Assembly: GCA_964625885.1 (NCBI GenBank)
Contig: CAZVBM010000002.1
Location: 7,537-71,536 of the forward strand
Length of the DNA: 64,000 nt
Origin: an uncultured Candidatus Saccharibacteria bacterium
Lineage (GTDB): Bacteria > Patescibacteriota > Saccharimonadia > Saccharimonadales > Saccharimonadaceae
Direction: 5' to 3'
The notes beneath the pieces are model-generated. The model had not been told where the DNA came from. It was given only the letters and a program-made list of their open reading frames with translations, and searched no databases. Below, in pieces: positions 32,266 through 61,865 of this stretch (its first letter is position 1; every line of letters begins with the position of its first letter). A program made the translations under genes and the position numbers.

Positions 32266-32410
32266 ATCCCACCGGGAAGGTTCGTTCGCTTTGCTTCCGA
32301 ACGCTCCGCCCGAACGCCAGATTAGTTTTGCTAACGCAAAACATCTGGGTTCGGTCCTGATGCGAAGCATCAAAAAAGAATACCCCAGCCGTTGGCTGAG
32401 GTATTCTTTT
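32266..32410 (-). repeat. tRNA-Glu-matched trailer unit: terminator-like hairpin, T-arm-derived palindrome and a 13-nt copy of the tRNA 3' part
   Basis: atcccaccgggaa at 32266-32278 repeats 32416-32428 inside the tRNA. ccgaacgccagat (32310-32322) and atctgggttcgg (32343-32354) form a hairpin made of tRNA-Glu T-arm sequence around gttttgctaacgcaaaac. Confidence 0.7.
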
Positions 32411-38957: not shown

Positions 38958-39335
38958 TCCTCCGTCGCTATCCGTTGGATAGCTATGGAGGATTTTTTGT
39001 ACATCTAGGTAGGGCGAGAACCTGACTCGCCAGTTGGCGGGAGGTTCGGCGTAGCGCAGCGAAGCGAAAAAGTGTTTACATTTTTTCGCAAGCAAGCGAA
39101 GGAGCGAGCAAAGCGAGCGATGTCCTGCCGGGTGCACCATTAAAAAATAGCTACATTGTGGCCATTTTTTAATGGTCTATACCCAGACAGATTTGATTCT
39201 GCGGCGCGGCAGATTTAGCTGACGCAAGCCGCAGGTTCGGCGGAGGCGAAATGAGAAAAGAAAGCACTGTAGGTATTTTCTTTTCGAATGAGCCAGAGGA
39301 GGCAAAGCCGATGTCCTGCCACGCACCCATCACCC
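38958..39335 (+). repeat. Two tandem tRNA-Arg-matched units, each ending in a copy of the tRNA 3' part
   Basis: gtcctgccgggtgcacca (38940-38957) is repeated exactly at 39122-39139 and degenerately at 39313-39329. T-stem 5' copies lie at 39038-39049 (diverged) and 39228-39240 (12/13). Confidence 0.85.
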
Positions 39336-46019: not shown

Positions 46020-46339
46020 CAGAAACACCTCGTGTAAACGAGGTGTTAATTTTAGTGAGACATCGCTCACCGCGTTCGCTCCTCCGCTCCGAAAGGGTCG
46101 AAAGCAAGCTTTCGCGTTTCTTTCGTCGCTACGCCGAACTCACGACTTGTTTTGCTAGTGAGACATCGCTCATCCGCCAATTGGCGGATTCACTCCTCCG
46201 CTTGCTTGCGAAAAAATGTAAACACTTTTTCGCTTCACTGCGCTACGCCGAACTCATTTTTGCTACGCAAAAATCTGAGTTCTCGTCTCAGCCAAAATCA
46301 AAATCCTCCATAGCAATTCAAAAGGATTGCGACGGAGGA
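46020..46339 (-). repeat. Two tandem tRNA-Lys-matched units downstream of tRNA-Lys
   Basis: tagtgagacatcgctca occurs twice (46053-46069 and 46156-46172). cgaactcacgac at 46135-46146 equals 46359-46370 inside the tRNA. The 61-nt block at 46193-46253 is the reverse complement of 39044-39104 (59/61). Confidence 0.85.
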
Positions 46340-47315: not shown

Positions 47316-47568
47316 AGACCGCATTTGAGGCTTTAGTCTCAAATAAGGTATGCTCGGCGTAGAAGAGAAGCGAACTCTTCGATAATTTCGCGGTCAGCGA
47401 AATTACATGTTGAGCCCAAGAAAACCAGCAACCTAAAAAATAGTTTTCATGGCGCGAGACTATATTCTCGCCACCCGCACCAAATCGTATTTGAGATTTT
47501 AATCTCAAATGCGAGTTGGCTCAGCATGGAAGAGAAGCGAACTCTTCGTTCTCGCCACCAACATCGTA
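47316..47568 (+). repeat. Two tandem tRNA-Gly-matched units between tRNA-Gly and tRNA-Arg(UCU)
   Basis: attctcgccacccgcacca (47297-47315) is repeated at 47463-47481. A degenerate third copy, ttctcgccacc, lies at 47548-47558. Both units start with an atttgag...ctcaaat hairpin and share gaagagaagcgaactcttcg. Confidence 0.85.
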
Positions 47569-47645
47569 TGCCTCGGTAGCTCAGCTGGATAGAGCAGGAG
47601 ACTTCTAAGCTCAAGGTCATAGGTTCGACTCCTATCCGAGGCGCC
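47569..47645 (+). tRNA. tRNA-Arg (anticodon UCU), CCA encoded
   Basis: Hand-folded: acceptor GCCTCGG/CCGAGGC, anticodon loop CTTCTAA (the anticodon stem has mismatches), T-arm ATAGG-TTCGACT-CCTAT. Terminator tcgcc-acacaa-ggcga with a T-run follows. Confidence 0.85.
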
Positions 47646-52107: not shown

Positions 52108-52192
52108 TATAATATGAGCACCTGAGAGAAAAGCGAAACTTGTTTTAGCTTTTCCGAAGGTGAGAAATATTACACGGAGTATAATCAACGTT
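52108..52192 (+). promoter_or_regulatory. Conserved promoter/hairpin module upstream of murT (copy 1 of 2)
   Basis: Order of elements: TATAAT (52108-13), a hairpin cacct...GAAAAGC..GCTTTTC...aggtg (52119-52162), then TATAAT (52180-85), then the ATG 7 nt later. About 85% identical to 55037-55121. Confidence 0.65.
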
Positions 52193-54758: not shown

Positions 54759-54835
54759 CGGGGCGTGGCGCAGCTTGGTAGCGCGCGCGGTTTGGGACCG
54801 TGAGGTCGCAAGTTCAAATCTTGTCGCCCCGACCA
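54759..54835 (+). tRNA. tRNA-Pro (anticodon UGG), CCA encoded
   Basis: Hand-folded: acceptor CGGGGCG/CGCCCCG, anticodon loop TTTGGGA, T-arm GCAAG-TTCAAAT-CTTGT. Confidence 0.9.
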
Positions 54836-55030
54836 AATAAAATTAGTCACCTTCATGGTGGCTGATTTTATTTGACCACGGAATGGTGAGTTGAACTTGC
54901 GACGTTTTGCGCCAGCAAAACAAGTCGCAAGTCGTGAAGTGAGTGAAGCGAGTGAAAAGCAGGCCGAAGGCTTGTTTTTCCGAGCGAACGAGCGGAAGAG
55001 CGAGTAATACGAGCGATAATCTTGTCCCAA
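54836..55030 (+). repeat. tRNA-Pro(UGG)-matched trailer unit
   Basis: Elements in order: a terminator-like hairpin at 54836-54876; ttgaacttgcgac (54891-54903), the inverse of the tRNA T-arm 5' side; the inner hairpin gttttgcgccagcaaaac; a direct copy gtcgcaagt (54924-32); a central hairpin GAAAAGC..G.TTTTTC (54954-80); and a 3' copy aatcttgtc (55018-26). Confidence 0.8.
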
Positions 55031-55036
55031 ATATTG

Positions 55037-55121
55037 TATAATTAGAGCATCTGAGCGAAAAGCGAAACCTTGTTTCAGCTTTTCCGAAGATGTGAATAAT
55101 TACACGTAGTATAATCAAGCT
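55037..55121 (+). promoter_or_regulatory. Conserved promoter/hairpin module upstream of the deacetylase gene (copy 2 of 2)
   Basis: Order of elements: TATAAT (55037-42), a hairpin catct...GAAAAGC..GCTTTTC...agatg (55048-55092), then TATAAT (55110-15), then the GTG 6 nt later. Confidence 0.65.
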
Positions 55122-56589: not shown

Positions 56590-56665
56590 CGGGATGTGGC
56601 GCAGTTGGTAGCGCGCACGGCTGGGGGCCGTGAGGTCGCCTGTTCAAGTCAGGTCATCCCGACCA
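56590..56665 (+). tRNA. tRNA-Pro (anticodon GGG), CCA encoded
   Basis: Hand-folded: acceptor CGGGATG/CATCCCG, anticodon loop CTGGGGG, T-arm GCCTG-TTCAAGT-CAGGT. Confidence 0.88.
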
Positions 56666-56747
56666 TCCTCCTTCGCTGTCTTCTGGACAGCTACGGAGGA
56701 TGCAGTCCGTAGCCTTTGGCGAAGGAGTGCATTTTATCAACACGCAT

Positions 56748-56824
56748 CGGGGCGTGGCGCAGCTTGGTAGCGCGCACCGTTCGGGACGGTGAGGTCGCCT
56801 GTTCAAATCAGGTCGCCCCGACCA
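56748..56824 (+). tRNA. tRNA-Pro (anticodon CGG), CCA encoded
   Basis: Hand-folded: acceptor CGGGGCG/CGCCCCG, anticodon loop TTCGGGA, T-arm GCCTG-TTCAAAT-CAGGT. Confidence 0.9.
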
Positions 56825-57282
56825 TAAAAATTGACTCACCTTTTGGTGGGTCAATTTTTATCTGTTGCGCGCAACATGTTTGACTGGCGACCTTTTGCGT
56901 AGCAAAAATTGGTCGCCTGTCGTGGAGTGAACGAAGCGAAGAAAAGCGCGTAGCATTTTTCTGAGCGAGTGAACGGAGGAGCGAAACGAAGTGGAGCGAT
57001 AATCAGGCCTGATACTATCGTAATATTGGTGGCTGATTTTATTTGGCCACGGAGTGGTGAGTTGAACAGGCGTGCCTGTTCGCGAATGAACTCAGCCTAC
57101 ATACGATCATGTGACCGGTTTAATAATTACTTTGAAGGGAATCTCGCAGTTACGACGGAGAGCTTAGCGCAGACGGCCCTGTAACGACAGGCGCCGTCAA
57201 GTGTCCCTGAAAAGTAATTATTAAATATCAGGTCGTATTAGAAATAGACAAGCAGGGTGGACGAAGCCCATAATCAGGCCCT
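56825..57282 (+). repeat. Three tandem tRNA-Pro(CGG)-matched units. The middle one carries the type-2 structured insert.
   Basis: Partial T-loop/T-stem 3' copies lie at 57001-57009 (aatcaggcc), 57225-57235 (atatcaggtcg) and 57270-57281 (ataatcaggccc). T-stem 5' copies are ggtcgcctgt (56911-20) and gcctgttcg (57074-82). Confidence 0.8.
57117..57235 (+). ncRNA. Candidate structured element (type-2 insert), copy 1. Strand and RNA status unproven.
   Basis: A 21-bp closing helix (ttaataattactttgaaggga / tccctgaaaagtaattattaa, with 2 mismatches) encloses a core that is about 85% identical to 61247-61310. Confidence 0.5.
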
Positions 57283-58756
57283 AAAACAACTTCTCACCGT
57301 AAATTTCATTTTCTAACTCATCATGATCATGACACCAAACCTGCGCAATAAACTGACTTTTCTTAGCTAATTTATCATTGTTCCACGGTGGCAAGAAACA
57401 TTCCGGACACCAATGCCCAGTTTTTAAGACTAAATACGGACTGGCCTCAAATTCGTGACCTTCGGAACAAACCCATTTCAATTTAGTTTGCAAATCGCCC
57501 TTTTTCATTTTATTAGACAAACAGTCGCCACCACGAAACTGAGCGGCTCGCTTCATATCAGCCAAATCTAACTGGTCTAACGGTTTTGTTTCATCATAAC
57601 CATGGTCTAATTTTGAATGCGCTTCATCGTGCACTAAACTAAAACCATCCCAGCCACCAGGAATCGCCTGCCATTTTTCAACCGAGCCAAAGAAAGCCTT
57701 AAATTTAGCCACTTCACCATGTTTTAGCCAATAGAGTGGCGCATTGGGCCGGTTGGCACGCGGTAACATAAAGAATCGCTTTACCAAACTAGCTGGGATA
57801 TATTTCAGTAATTTTAATTTGAGCGGTAGATCTCGTTTAATCTCTGCCAAAACATCATCAACCGTTTCGGTTCGAAAGTCTAAATAATTATTTAAATCAT
57901 CGGAATCCAAATACCACATGCCATGAAAATTACGCAGCGCATACCAATTTGGCTGTTCTAATGATTTAAGATCCACCCCTAACATACGATAAAACTTGTC
58001 TAAAAATTCAAAGGCCGTCAAGCGATTGGCCGCGCCACCACCAATATTATAGACTCGGCTCCAGAATCCACTAGGTAGCTCTTTGGTGCAGAGATTGTAT
58101 AGCAGCCGACCAGAATCACGCGCCGTAATCCACTCCAAGCTATTGTTGAGTGGCTGATGATAACTAATACCATCGTCCACCGCAAAAATATCTTTGTGTA
58201 TAATGCCCGTCTGACGGAGCGACACCCACTGCTTTATACCAGATTCAATCACATAACGTTCAGCTGCCACTTTGGAAATGGAATAATAGTCAAAAGCACT
58301 CGGTAGTAGTGGATCGCCGACTCGCCCCCAGTGGACTGGAATTGGCCGATTGCCATACTGACCAATACTACCAATGTAAACAAATTTAGTTGTTTCACCC
58401 TGCCCAAGTTCTATCACCGCATCGACTAAGTTTTTTGTGCCACCAAAATTAATTCGCCAGGCTAGTTTTGGACGCGTATCGGCCATCGGCGAGACCAACG
58501 CCGCAATATGCAAAACAATATCTATCCCAGATACAGCCTTTTTAACATCGTCATAATTGGTTAAATCACCCCAAACAATTTTAATATCTAGATTATCTTG
58601 ATAGGGCGCCAAGACCTTCTTGTCTGACTCACTTGGCAAAGAGAATATTACCAAATCAAATTGGTCAGTCTTTTCAGCCAATTGACGCAAAGCCTCACGC
58701 CCCATATTGCCAGTCGCGCCGGTTAAAAGAACCTTGGTTTTTTTAGCTTGACTCAT
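57281..58756 (-). CDS. NAD-dependent epimerase/dehydratase (extended SDR) with a C-terminal Cys-rich, zinc-ribbon-like domain
   Basis: Rossmann motif LLTGATGNMG and catalytic YSISK (YxxxK). C-terminal WVCSEGHEFE...GHWCPEC. Confidence 0.75.
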   Translation of the reverse strand: MSQAKKTKVLLTGATGNMGREALRQLAEKTDQFDLVIFSLPSESDKKVLAPYQDNLDIKIVWGDLTNYDDVKKAVSGIDIVLHIAALVSPMADTRPKLAWRINFGGTKNLVDAVIELGQGETTKFVYIGSIGQYGNRPIPVHWGRVGDPLLPSAFDYYSISKVAAERYVIESGIKQWVSLRQTGIIHKDIFAVDDGISYHQPLNNSLEWITARDSGRLLYNLCTKELPSGFWSRVYNIGGGAANRLTAFEFLDKFYRMLGVDLKSLEQPNWYALRNFHGMWYLDSDDLNNYLDFRTETVDDVLAEIKRDLPLKLKLLKYIPASLVKRFFMLPRANRPNAPLYWLKHGEVAKFKAFFGSVEKWQAIPGGWDGFSLVHDEAHSKLDHGYDETKPLDQLDLADMKRAAQFRGGDCLSNKMKKGDLQTKLKWVCSEGHEFEASPYLVLKTGHWCPECFLPPWNNDKLAKKSQFIAQVWCHDHDELENEIYGEKLF

Positions 58757-58831
58757 TACACTTAATTGTACATCAAAATTTTAACCCAAAGAAAAATCGG
58801 GCTTAACGCCCGATTTGGAGAAATAATTTGC

Positions 58832-59110
58832 TTAAATGGCAAGTTCTAAATCCGAAATGTACGCACCAATTTCGGCAGACTGCTTTTCAAGACTTTCTAG
58901 CTCACTCTCGACGTTGTCGGTAGAGCGACCATCATTCTGCAACTCGGCAAGCAACTCGCACTGCTTGACGTACCTGTTGTGGACGCACTCCAGTGCCTCA
59001 TTAGCTTCCCTTAGTTTGCGATCCCTAAACTCGACAGCCTCATGGTCCAAGCCACGAGAGAGGTAATCGGCTATCATGGTTAACGCTCTTGTGTCTATAT
59101 CATATTTCAT
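58832..59110 (-). CDS. Small hypothetical helical protein (92 aa)
   Basis: SD GGAGGG, its own TATAAT and its own terminator (58793-58818). Heptad-like charged sequence. Confidence 0.55.
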   Translation of the reverse strand: MKYDIDTRALTMIADYLSRGLDHEAVEFRDRKLREANEALECVHNRYVKQCELLAELQNDGRSTDNVESELESLEKQSAEIGAYISDLELAI

Positions 59111-59205
59111 AACATAGCCCTCCTTTTTGTACTAGCACCCTTACGAGCGCCTCATCCTACAATTATAGCATAAAAATGTATAAATATCAAATAAAAGCCG
59201 GGTTT

Positions 59206-59448
59206 TTACCCGGCATTGAGCATTTCGCCAAAAGTTTCTAGCTCGGCAATAAAATGAGAAATAGTTTCAATTTTAGCCTCAATACTCTTACGATCTTTTG
59301 CTGAAGCGGTTTCATATTGTTCGTCTAGTTTTTTTAACTCAGCTCGACTCTCGCCAAGGACCCGATTCATCAAATCTCGTGCCTTGTCCCGCTCATCCAA
59401 AAGAAACAGTTTGTTTAGTTCGATCCTAACGTCATCACGATACAGCAA
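59206..59448 (-). CDS. Small hypothetical helical protein (80 aa, TTG start). Possible paralogue of the 58832 ORF.
   Basis: SD GGAGGGA before the TTG. It shares the leader motif ggtgctagtaYaa with the neighbouring small gene. Its own terminator (aaagccgggtttttacccggc) overlaps the 3' end. Confidence 0.5.
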   Translation of the reverse strand: MLYRDDVRIELNKLFLLDERDKARDLMNRVLGESRAELKKLDEQYETASAKDRKSIEAKIETISHFIAELETFGEMLNAG

Positions 59449-59533
59449 TCAAACTCCCTCCTTCGCTTATACTAGCACCAAAAAGCGCCACAACCATCAT
59501 ACAGTCATAGCGCTTTTATATCAAGCAGGCTAT

Positions 59534-61045: not shown

Positions 61046-61220
61046 AAAACCCTTTCATCTGGGCGATCGTTTTCATCGCCTGTAAAAATATTCTTAAATC
61101 CGCGTCTTCGTCAAAAAATGGTCACTAAACGCTAATTAGATTGTAGCACAAAGCCATTTAGCGCGCGACTAATTATTAAAACCGACAACTAGTTTGCGTC
61201 ATTGTCCTTTATTCCGTACG

Positions 61221-61335
61221 GCCAGTTCAACAACTCACCAGCAGACAATCTCGCAGTTACGACGAGAGTTTAGCGCGAGCAGCCCTGTGACGACAGGCGC
61301 TGCCGACGCGTGTCTGATGGGGAGTTGTTGAACAT
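61221..61335 (+). ncRNA. Candidate structured element (type-2 insert), copy 2, embedded in an orphan tRNA-Pro-like T-arm. Strand unproven.
   Basis: ggccagttcaa | insert | catcaggcc. The closing helix gttcaacaactcaccagcagac / gtctgatggggagttgttgaac is unrelated in sequence to that of copy 1, while the core is conserved. Confidence 0.5.
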
Positions 61336-61490
61336 CAGGCCGTGGGTTAGCCTGGATTGGGGCTTTCAACCGACCAGCTCTCCAGAGACGTTTGACCACG
61401 CCCGTCGTTACGGGGTGGTCTGCACTTCGCTGTCGGTCGTAACCGCCAGAGCCTCTGTCGAGCTGGTTGGTTTACGCCCACTAGGTGACA

Positions 61491-61865
61491 CTATTTACGT
61501 GGTTGGGTGATTACCGCGTCCTGATAATAAATCGGCGTGATTACTTGTGGTGTTGCCTGCTTTTTCAGCAACTCATCACCATCAGCGCGCCAATTTTCGC
61601 CACCGGAACCAACAATTGGAATTTGCAAGCTATCAGCCAAAGTATTCGCCACCGTAATACCGATGCGAAGTGATGTATAGCTACCAGGCCCACGAAACAC
61701 CACAATACCATCAAGATCTGACCACCCCCTACCCTCGCCCCCTAACGACTGTTGTAAAAATTGCAACATATTTTTAGAAAGCTCACGACCAAACTGTTGC
61801 TCGAATAATTTATCGTCGAGCCACAAGCGACACCAGTCATCGGCGGTTTGTAGATATAATTTCAC
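61491..61865 (-). CDS. tsaB: tRNA t6A biosynthesis protein TsaB, N-terminal-domain-only short form
   Basis: GPGSYTSLRIGITVANTLA motif. 124 aa, versus roughly 230 aa for the usual protein (from memory). Overlaps the tsaE stop. Confidence 0.75.
   Translation of the reverse strand: MKLYLQTADDWCRLWLDDKLFEQQFGRELSKNMLQFLQQSLGGEGRGWSDLDGIVVFRGPGSYTSLRIGITVANTLADSLQIPIVGSGGENWRADGDELLKKQATPQVITPIYYQDAVITQPRK

Follow-up and report, generated by a model that had tools for sequence, protein, structure and literature searches.

Trailer modules behind tRNA genes of a Candidatus Saccharibacteria bacterium look like the footprint of a small mobile DNA

Tandem accretion of integrase-less remnants is known from cis-mobilisable elements, the attP(+) site of CTXphi consists of two inverted dif-like sites, and both CTXphi and integron attC sites are used as folded single strands. 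In retroviruses and long terminal repeat (LTR) retrotransposons the primer-binding site has the final 18 nt of a tRNA, as far as m1A58, as its template. Integrative elements and islands that target tRNA genes insert in the 3′ part of the gene, restore its 3′ end, are flanked by direct repeats and form arrays at one tRNA, and for mycobacteriophage Ms6 the crossover of such an integration lies in the T-loop (PMC1762012). Small units that share all of these properties, the T-loop breakpoint included, were found in the trailers of tRNA genes of an uncultured Candidatus Saccharibacteria bacterium, within a 64-kb stretch of contig CAZVBM010000002.1 that is called the window below (46% G+C, nine tRNA genes). 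The units differ from the tRNA-targeting elements in being about 190 bp long without an integrase, in carrying an inverted copy of the tRNA 3′ third, in having a distal copy that is split at A58, and in that one family occurs at at least 15 tRNAs. The trailer modules look like the footprint of a small undescribed mobile DNA and not like a tRNA regulator. A full-text literature search, whose coverage was incomplete, found no description of such units.

The unit behind tRNA-Pro(UGG) and its breakpoints

Along the direction of the tRNA the order of a unit is tRNA, T, Z, hp, X, I, Y, and the module is approximately 190 bp long. T is a hairpin directly after the CCA, Z is an antisense copy of part of the tRNA, hp is an inner hairpin that often reads TTTTGCG-N-AGCAAAA, X and Y are sense copies, and I is a GA-rich cassette of 25–100 nt that starts with GCGTAGCG or CGTGAAG, contains a central hairpin and a small variable hairpin, and ends with CGAT. 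The positions of these parts in the window are given in Table 1.

In the trailer of tRNA-Pro(UGG), Z is the exact reverse complement of raw positions 47–59 of the tRNA, X is a direct copy of raw positions 47–55, and Y corresponds to raw positions 59–67, with gagcgat directly before it (55011–55026 for both together). The cassette occupies the T-loop place of the X/Y copy, and homologous cassettes are found at tRNA-Pro(CGG) and in the closest relative described below. The antisense 13-mer, inner hairpin, sense 9-mer and gagcgat/aatcttgtc that the first-pass annotation had reported from this trailer were all recovered at their positions, and the analogous arrangements that it had listed at tRNA-Glu, tRNA-Lys(CUU) and tRNA-Pro(CGG) exist. 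The single-strand fold of 54817–55030 contained three strong hairpins, formed by T, by Z-hp-X and by the centre of I, with a free energy of -40.7 kcal/mol and a z score of -5.4. The T hairpin, which was missed by a simple terminator scan, is the apex of a palindrome formed by the tRNA 3′ end and Z, and part of the T region (54856–54896) is repeated at 57027–57067 with 95% identity.

The breakpoints of the units were measured in 52 non-redundant metagenomic units using canonical tRNA numbering. X mostly covered positions 46–57 and was followed by GCGTAGCG. Y mostly began at position 59, or at 58 where the base was ambiguous, with CGAT just before it, and in many of the units it covered 59–76. 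The breakpoint was A58 and was fixed across the 52 units. When mismatches were allowed, Z started at 46–48 and reached 62–76 in most units; it extended to the complement of CCA in two loci (L145 and L172) and started with TGG in a few units, and three tRNA-Ala units (L155, L175 and L183) had, directly after T, a separate TGGTGGA that is complementary to the 3′ end of the tRNA. Neither the unit ends (tRNA 59–76 ... CGAT) nor the cassette ends (GCGTAG ... GAGCGAT) are inverted repeats; the flanking repeat is 18–19 nt of tRNA, and the left flank of I is (T/G)TCG.

As read from these sequences, the true layout of a unit is tRNA 46–76, T, 76–46 inverted, hp, 46–57, I, 59–76, which is a direct-inverted-direct order with hairpins at both turns and a cassette at A58. 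The first-pass annotation had described Z as an antisense copy of the T-arm. This description was too narrow: in less decayed units Z covers the whole 3′ third of the tRNA, 46–76 including the CCA, and Z is better described as the gene end repeated in inverse orientation than as an antisense to the T-arm specifically. The segment aatcttgtc was rightly identified as a copy of the 3′ side of the T-loop and T-stem, and as Y of the tRNA-Pro(UGG) unit it is most plausibly what is left of the original tRNA 3′ end after its displacement.

The closest named relative of the window is a Candidatus Nanosyncoccaceae metagenome-assembled genome (MAG), with a deacetylase that is 76% identical and a locus, L082, with synteny across 21 kb. 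Within the window and L082 the tRNAs matched their own trailers over 9–19 nt in the sense and 11–13 nt in the antisense direction, compared to a mean of approximately 6.3 nt and a maximum of 8–9 nt for non-cognate tRNAs. For the 52 metagenomic units the comparison was restricted to the tRNA-specific positions 44–53 and 61–72, and the cognate tRNA exceeded the 95th percentile of the non-cognates for Z in 32 units, for X in 30 and for Y in 39, with approximately 2.6 expected. The claim that the arms are built from the local tRNA is therefore supported statistically in the window and in 52 independent units. T, hp and I are common to different loci, whereas the sequences of Z, X and Y follow that of the tRNA next to them. 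The four Pro units, from the window and from L082, align as homologues with 84% column identity. Most differences between them in Z, X and Y fall at T-stem positions that separate tRNA-Pro(UGG) from tRNA-Pro(CGG), and Y has the local version; both Z copies at tRNA-Pro(CGG) have one substitution and a 1-nt deletion relative to their tRNA. Since the arms carry the local version of the tRNA, the units arose, or were re-templated, after the two tRNAs had diverged.

T-arms hold a 5-bp inverted repeat, and chance or this self-complementarity would be the simplest origin of an inverted copy. The exact 13-nt match at tRNA-Pro(UGG) covers positions 46–48 and the T-loop in addition to the 5-bp stem, as had been pointed out in the first-pass annotation. 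The 13-mer is present just twice in the window, once in the tRNA and once as the inverted copy, with 0.13 expected even when one mismatch is allowed, the matches are specific to the cognate tRNA, and approximately 75 further units with the same architecture are present among the metagenomic matches listed. The expectation for the 13-mer and the tests of cognate specificity refute this explanation, which we regard as having a negligible probability.

Table 1. Positions of tRNA trailer units and their parts in the 64-kb window
Feature	Position	Strand	Details
tRNA-Pro(UGG), CCA encoded	54759..54835	+	ARAGORN; Rfam tRNA 61.9 bits
T, A/T-flanked 18-bp hairpin directly 3′ of CCA, terminator-like	54836..54873	+	single-strand fold
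Spacer gaccacggaatggtgag	54874..54890	+	place of antisense tRNA 59–76 in fresher units
Z, ttgaacttgcgac, antisense copy, canonical 46–58	54891..54903	+	exact 13/13 match
hp, inner hairpin gttttgcgccagcaaaac, gttttgc-gcca-gcaaaac	54904..54921	+	not tRNA-derived; common to units at other tRNAs
X, gtcgcaagt, sense copy, canonical 46–54, pairs with Z	54924..54932	+	exact match, fold
I, 85-nt GA-rich cassette, cgtgaag ... gagcgat	54933..55017	+	central hairpin 54955–54979
Y, aatcttgtc, sense copy, canonical 58/59–66	55018..55026	+	exact match
tRNA-Pro(CGG) trailer	56825..57091	+	unit 1: T 56825–56860, extra hairpin 56863–56876, Z ~56885–56892, hp 56893–56907, X 56911–56920, I 56921–57000, Y 57001–57009
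tRNA-Pro(CGG) unit 2, truncated	57028..57091	+	complete in L082
tRNA-Arg(UCG) trailer, two units	38958..39329	+	unit 1: T 38958–38998, Z-hp-X 39018–39048, I 39049–39121, Y 39122–39139 (18/18 including CCA)
tRNA-Arg(UCG) unit 2	within 38958..39329	+	T 39140–39172, X 39228–39239, I 39240–39312, Y 39313–39329
tRNA-Lys(CUU) trailer, two units	46024..46339	-	unit 1: T 46300–46339, Z-hp-X 46249–46284, I 46165–46248
tRNA-Lys(CUU) unit 2	within 46024..46339	-	Y, half of hp and X 46135–46164; I 46062–46134; Y and hairpin 46024–46061
tRNA-Glu(UUC) unit	32266..32410	-	T 32372–32410, Z 32343–32353, hp 32325–32342, X 32311–32322, short I 32279–32310, Y 32266–32278
tRNA-Gly(UCC), two simpler units	47317..47569	+	Y copies 47464–47482 (19/19) and 47549–47562

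Spread, stacking and exchange of the units

Units are carried by six of the nine tRNA genes of the window. In addition to the sites listed in the first-pass annotation there are two units at tRNA-Arg(UCG), a second unit at tRNA-Lys(CUU) and two simpler units at tRNA-Gly, and all of the tRNAs score as normal tRNAs. The complete Y copies at tRNA-Arg(UCG) and tRNA-Gly run to the CCA, which is then followed by another hairpin. Nearly all of the cassette of the first Arg unit (39044–39104) is 97% identical over 61 nt to the Lys(CUU) unit (46253–46193).

One type of hairpin, CCA-TCCTCC ... GGAGGATTTT, is present at 38958–38998 (Arg-UCG), at 46300–46339 on the minus strand (Lys-CUU) and at 56666–56706 (Pro-GGG); the Arg and Lys copies were paired by self-BLAST with 89% identity and the Pro-GGG copy was matched by eye. 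As this one type stands behind three tRNAs and tRNA-Lys(CUU) has a different hairpin in L082, the hairpin modules have been exchanged between loci too. ARAGORN located tRNA-Pro(GGG) at 56590–56665 and tRNA-Pro(CGG) at 56748–56824, and a scan at the Rfam gathering threshold listed seven of the nine tRNAs, without these two. The omission is probably an effect of the filter and not a defect of the genes.

The same architecture was found at tRNAs for Pro, Arg(UCU), Gly and His in other Saccharibacteria MAGs. Across the Saccharibacteria loci that were sampled, 15 of 37 tRNAs (about 40%) are followed by a sense copy of 11 nt or more. The cassette core CGAAAAAGTGTTTACATTTTTTCG is identical in the Arg and Lys units of the window and in a distant MAG (L079). 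The tRNAs that bear units vary between the MAGs, so that the presence of a unit is not conserved at any one tRNA. These comparison loci were obtained from a scan of a genome collection with MurT, which returned distant relatives at around 50% identity, partly Arthrobacter, and gave the Saccharibacteria loci and no close relatives; the Actinobacteria loci contained only two tRNAs and were of no use as a control. The MurT of the window has approximately 50% identity to MurT of Arthrobacter and other Micrococcaceae, about equal to that with other Saccharibacteria (L003–L081), which fits gene sharing between Saccharibacteria and Actinobacteria.

Metagenomes were searched with a 21-nt degenerate pattern of the cassette core. 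At least 120 stretches matched, on contigs without taxonomic assignment, and among the matches listed approximately 75 were units; the matches that were not units were unrelated human-gut sequence. Where the contig reached far enough, nearly all of the units among the matches listed were 100–125 nt downstream of a tRNA on the same strand, and the tRNAs were of at least 15 types, with several anticodons (Ser, Phe, Lys, Tyr, Gln, Ala, Asn, Asp, Val, Leu, Met, Arg, Gly and Pro). Other cassette families occur in the same surroundings, including ... GGGGTCGCGGAACGTGACC, GCGTAGCGAAATC ... GCCGAT and a 25-nt version. The 21-nt pattern had no matches in viral contigs, and blastn found no match to the cassette core in phage or plasmid collections; an origin of the core from a phage or plasmid was rejected. 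Rfam 15, which includes ribozymes, T-box and tmRNA, gave only tRNA at the gathering threshold and nothing credible at E values up to 10 on two unit regions.

Comparison of the window with L082 revealed turnover of the units. At tRNA-Pro(UGG) the single unit of the window consists of the left part of the second and the right part of the first of two units in L082. At tRNA-Lys(UUU), which is beyond the window, one unit is present in the window species, as seen in the ENA contig L088, which is from the same species (99.3% identity, colinear); L082 has a perfect tandem duplication of a 187-nt unit together with a partial unit. In L082 (19405–19780) each of the 187-nt copies ends in the full 18-nt tRNA 3′ end, and the third, partial unit has Z-hp-X without I and Y. 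The first Lys(CUU) unit has the same Z-hp-X in both genomes with a different type of I and a different T. The two Gly units are common to the window and L082 and are therefore old.

The cassette is inverted relative to the tRNA in two metagenomic loci (L136 and L140), while L141 and L190 have identical flanks of the cassette core. The junctions in L140 are X ... T54 / rc(I) / A57 ..., where rc denotes the reverse complement, compared with the usual X ... G57 / I / N59, and the two arrangements are roughly mirrored about the centre of the T-loop. The cassette therefore behaves as a separable part, exchangeable at the breakpoint.

Proposed insertion at the T-loop and its alternatives

Our leading, though tentative, reading is that the units are small non-autonomous DNA modules that inserted at the T-loop, restored the tRNA 3′ end and piled up in tandem. 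An inserted block, composed of a fresh copy of 59–76 (R) followed by T, Z, hp, X and I, would enter the tRNA gene between canonical positions 58 and 59. The tRNA would survive since R and a new terminator-like hairpin arrive with the block, and the original 3′ end would be pushed downstream to persist as Y; at tRNA-Pro(UGG) the last 18 nt of the present gene would thus have come with the insert. Further insertions, or unequal exchange among the copies, would stack the units, and older units would decay. The flanking direct repeats of the tRNA 3′ end, up to 18–19 nt including the CCA at Arg-UCG and Gly, are the classical signature of insertion into a tRNA gene.

In the same model Z would be one arm of the conserved Z:X hairpin, which reproduces on a single strand the duplex of the tRNA gene beside the insertion point. 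Because Z reaches 62–76 in most units, a single-stranded block would fold as a dumbbell copy of the target, with 59–76 paired to its inverted copy under the T cap, 46–57 likewise paired under the hp cap, and I branching at 58. By analogy with CTXphi and integron cassettes, such a folded mimic of the target may serve a recombinase or transposase in trans as its substrate. What the sequences show is the architecture with its breakpoints, the dependence on the cognate tRNA, the occurrence in different lineages, the tandem stacks and the exchange or inversion of cassettes; the enzyme, a single-stranded intermediate and mobility itself are inferred. The units resemble CTXphi and attC sites in having two inverted target-like copies with a short spacer, side by side at one end of the insert, whose fold mimics the duplex target. 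They differ in that the target is a tRNA gene and not dif or attI, on which XerCD or IntI would act, and in that the breakpoint is at the foot of the hairpin and carries a cassette. Similarity to integron core sites or dif and to the guide loops of bridge RNAs was set aside by inspection, as Z and X copy the same side of the target and not its two flanks. The stems of I covary, and GCGNAGC mini-hairpins abound in the hp loops and at the ends of I. As single-stranded DNA, mini-hairpins of the d(GCGAAGC) type have an unusual stability, which is a lead and not a test.

The direct-inverted-direct order with both junctions at hairpins is also the product of tandem inversion duplication, a local replication error known from Salmonella, where it arises by snap-back at quasi-palindromes. 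A snap-back at T would copy the 3′ third of the tRNA backwards to give Z and then forwards to give X ... Y, and hp and I would be inserted later at the unstable junctions. Units without hp, in which Z and X meet at a centre of 1–2 nt, are what this process would leave (the second Pro(UGG) unit of L082, the second Pro(CGG) unit and the first unit of L128), and in L160 and L168 the tRNA and Y are followed by equal or similar hairpins. In most units, however, the hairpin after Y is unrelated to T. The modules T, hp and I do not come from the tRNA locus and recur at unrelated tRNAs and in distant lineages, the inner boundary is invariably at 46–48 and the cassette at 58, and the occurrence at 15 or more tRNA types argues for a directed process. 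These foreign modules and fixed boundaries, together with the tiny size, set the units apart from the Salmonella duplications, and we consider an origin by replication error improbable.

Another alternative is a retro-copy origin, in which a reverse transcriptase would have copied a mature tRNA from its CCA end to give Z and a snap-back second strand would have given X ... Y, the break at 58 being the block caused by m1A58, as for the 18-nt retroviral primer-binding site. R and Y are exactly the 18 nt 3′ of A58, Z of the fresher units starts at TGG directly after T and runs to 46, and such a hairpin layout is usual for self-primed second strands. The mismatch rate in Z is highest at positions 57/58 (31–34%, compared with 13–15% at 59–61), where most changes are A58 to G; this change also lengthens the pairing with the first G of I. 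The CCA is encoded in the gene in all 52 tRNAs and so is not diagnostic, hp and I are not derived from tRNA, and the centre of the T-loop is an equally natural site for a recombinase that recognises the symmetric T-arm. The units share with the primer-binding site of retroelements an 18-nt segment that ends exactly at 59 and an antisense copy that starts from the complement of CCA, and differ from retroelements in the absence of a reverse transcriptase, of LTRs and of any sign of an RNA intermediate. No reverse transcriptase was found in the window or beside units, except for one putative reverse transcriptase-like open reading frame (ORF), named from motifs only, in an unrelated-looking island at L201. 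A retro-copy origin is accordingly judged to be quite unlikely.

A further possibility is that the trailer is a functional RNA, transcribed with or after the tRNA, in which Z pairs with the T-arm or X-I-Y forms a tRNA-like small RNA, with a role in maturation control or as a decoy. The cassette has properties that would be expected of such an RNA. Its central hairpin covaries at two pairs outside the search pattern (C-G 39 / T-A 7 and G-C 17 / A-T 25), its 5′ end forms a G-Y-(G-N-A)-G-Y mini-hairpin with G.A in 43 of 50 units, and a variable covarying hairpin precedes CGAT. The mini-hairpin has many G.T wobbles, which pair only on the tRNA-sense strand, and the cassette folds better on that strand in 50 of the 52 units, although its GA-rich composition confounds this strand test. 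The core sequence of I is kept across distant lineages. The Z:X arm is also conserved: Z differs from the tRNA at 4.4% of positions in 46–56, the arm that faces X, and at 23% in 59–72, so that the Z:X hairpin seems to be under constraint.

The changes within the Z:X hairpin are hardly ever compensatory. Z, X and the tRNA were identical at 446 of 491 compared positions, and of the changes 24 were in X only, 18 in Z only and three were shared; compensatory evolution inside the hairpin, independent of the tRNA, was not seen in this comparison. The numbers of G.U pairs on the two strands of Z-hp-X were 29 and 26, showing no asymmetry, which together with the 42 unshared changes lends no support to a T-arm antisense carried on the tRNA transcript. 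A pseudo T-stem formed by X and Y, giving a pseudo-tRNA arm with an expanded T-loop, was not supported as a maintained structure, with 14 pair-breaking and five pair-keeping changes. No promoter-like site was seen inside the unit, Rfam had no match, and the presence of units varies by tRNA and species, with tandem stacking, decay and inversion of I. A functional RNA therefore has a low probability in our assessment. The unit first reported at tRNA-Pro(UGG) is real and recurrent, with arms built from the local tRNA; its proposed action as T-arm antisense on the tRNA transcript is without direct support. The long, strong hairpin T lies between the tRNA and Z, and X is a perfect partner for Z close by.

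Several observations weigh against the insertion of a mobile DNA at the T-loop. The model gives no account of how a moving block would gain the Z, X and R that fit each new tRNA. No recombinase, transposase or reverse transcriptase was found in or beside the units or among the called genes of the window, no credible gene is contained in the 190-bp units, and a motif scan near other metagenomic units found hardly any recombinase. No pair of filled and empty sites and no excised form was found, the contigs of the same species, from several samples, being identical or ending inside the repeat. The junctions of I are not clean: A58 is usually lost, there is an extra T, and T54 reads G in most units behind tRNAs of the TTCAA type. 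The G.T wobbles confined to the tRNA-sense strand of the I hairpins are also expected of a transcribed RNA. At tRNA-Pro(UGG) itself Z is no longer recognisable beyond position 58; this part has decayed, and in the alignment of the Pro units the similarity of the spacer to antisense tRNA 59–76 is gone.

Among transposable elements, the miniature elements and REP sequences of the IS200/IS605 type (HUH Y1) are alike in that I has no terminal inverted repeats and has hairpins by both ends, a fixed left motif (T/G)TCG, a right end CGAT, a strong orientation bias and stable GNA mini-hairpins. They differ in that the junctions of I are not seamless, no transposase was seen in the 64 kb, and Z, X and R are left unaccounted for. 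The units also differ from a classical miniature inverted-repeat transposable element, a non-autonomous DDE transposon, in having neither terminal inverted repeats nor a short fixed target-site duplication. What is new in the units is their tiny size without a gene, the inverted copy of the tRNA end, the cassette at the breakpoint and the presence of one module family behind many tRNAs. The general class, DNA inserted at the 3′ end of tRNA genes, is already known, and a mechanism of a new kind is unlikely but a real possibility. It is similarly doubtful, though conceivable, that Saccharibacteria and other bacteria of candidate phyla harbour in these units a so far unrecognised class of mobile DNA that builds its targeting arms from the tRNA at each insertion and moves as a folded single strand or by reverse transcription with a stop at m1A58. 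The target would then be recognised by nucleic-acid mimicry that is re-templated at each move, in place of a fixed site recognised by a protein.

Surroundings and significance of the units

The genes of the window are housekeeping genes, including UvrA, Obg, AlaRS, MetRS, glycolysis, MurT/GatD, ClpB and RNase Y. A serine recombinase was nearby in only three of the approximately 75 unit loci among the matches listed. In L205 (121–6700) a tRNA-Asp is followed by a 512-amino-acid large serine recombinase with Resolvase, Recombinase and zinc-ribbon domains and by XRE/IrrE-type regulators, and a decayed 3′-end copy and a full unit are positioned 6.7 kb downstream of the tRNA. In L118 (800–4200) a decayed unit is preceded by a resolvase-type gene and a zeta toxin, and L204 has a related recombinase downstream of a unit. 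The boundaries of these islands and units do not clearly coincide, and the three recombinases were not tied to the movement of the units. In L201 (1–10660), an 11.5-kb locus without a tRNA, more than 10 kb of putative defence genes precede the unit; three large ORFs resemble type I restriction-modification genes and a fourth is similar to reverse transcriptase, the names being given by sequence inspection without a Pfam check. The islands of L205, L201 and L118 are placed between a unit and a tRNA, or the site where one is expected. The tRNA ends are thus insertion hot spots.

A segment of approximately 2.3 kb with an NAD-dependent epimerase gene and two small ORFs (57092–59450, compared with L082 12060–12490) is absent from L082. 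It begins inside the second Pro(CGG) unit, and this array seems to be a site of gene gain or loss. A 55-nt repeat (57140–57194 and 61247–61300, 87% identical) adjoins the truncated second Pro(CGG) unit and recurs in the intergenic region upstream of the RNase Y gene. The region 61046–61495 contains long-range complementary segments, cagttcaacaactc ... gagttgttgaac, with no Rfam match at E values up to 1, and may be an unannotated structured RNA or another repeat family. A 74-nt leader module is present between TATAAT-like boxes upstream of murT (52116–52188) and of the polysaccharide deacetylase gene (55045–55118), the copies being 88% identical. Its core, gagcgaaaagc-hairpin-gcttttccgaag, resembles the centre of the GA-rich cassette of the Pro units, and the module could be a shared regulatory or terminator-like element or a remnant of a cassette.

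Short-read contigs from Logan end inside the cassette core, the expected behaviour of a dispersed repeat. Short-read assemblies break at the units, and this has a bearing on MAG quality for uncultivated Saccharibacteria. If the units are not mobile, they are still a striking, recurrent and patterned rearrangement at the tRNA genes of very small genomes. If they are mobile, they would be tiny elements that insert at the T-loop, more conserved than any other part of a genome, and yet spare the tRNA, with one shared set of modules serving many different tRNAs. The origin of the tRNA-matched arms could then point to a new principle of integration-site choice, and perhaps to a compact insertion system that can be retargeted.

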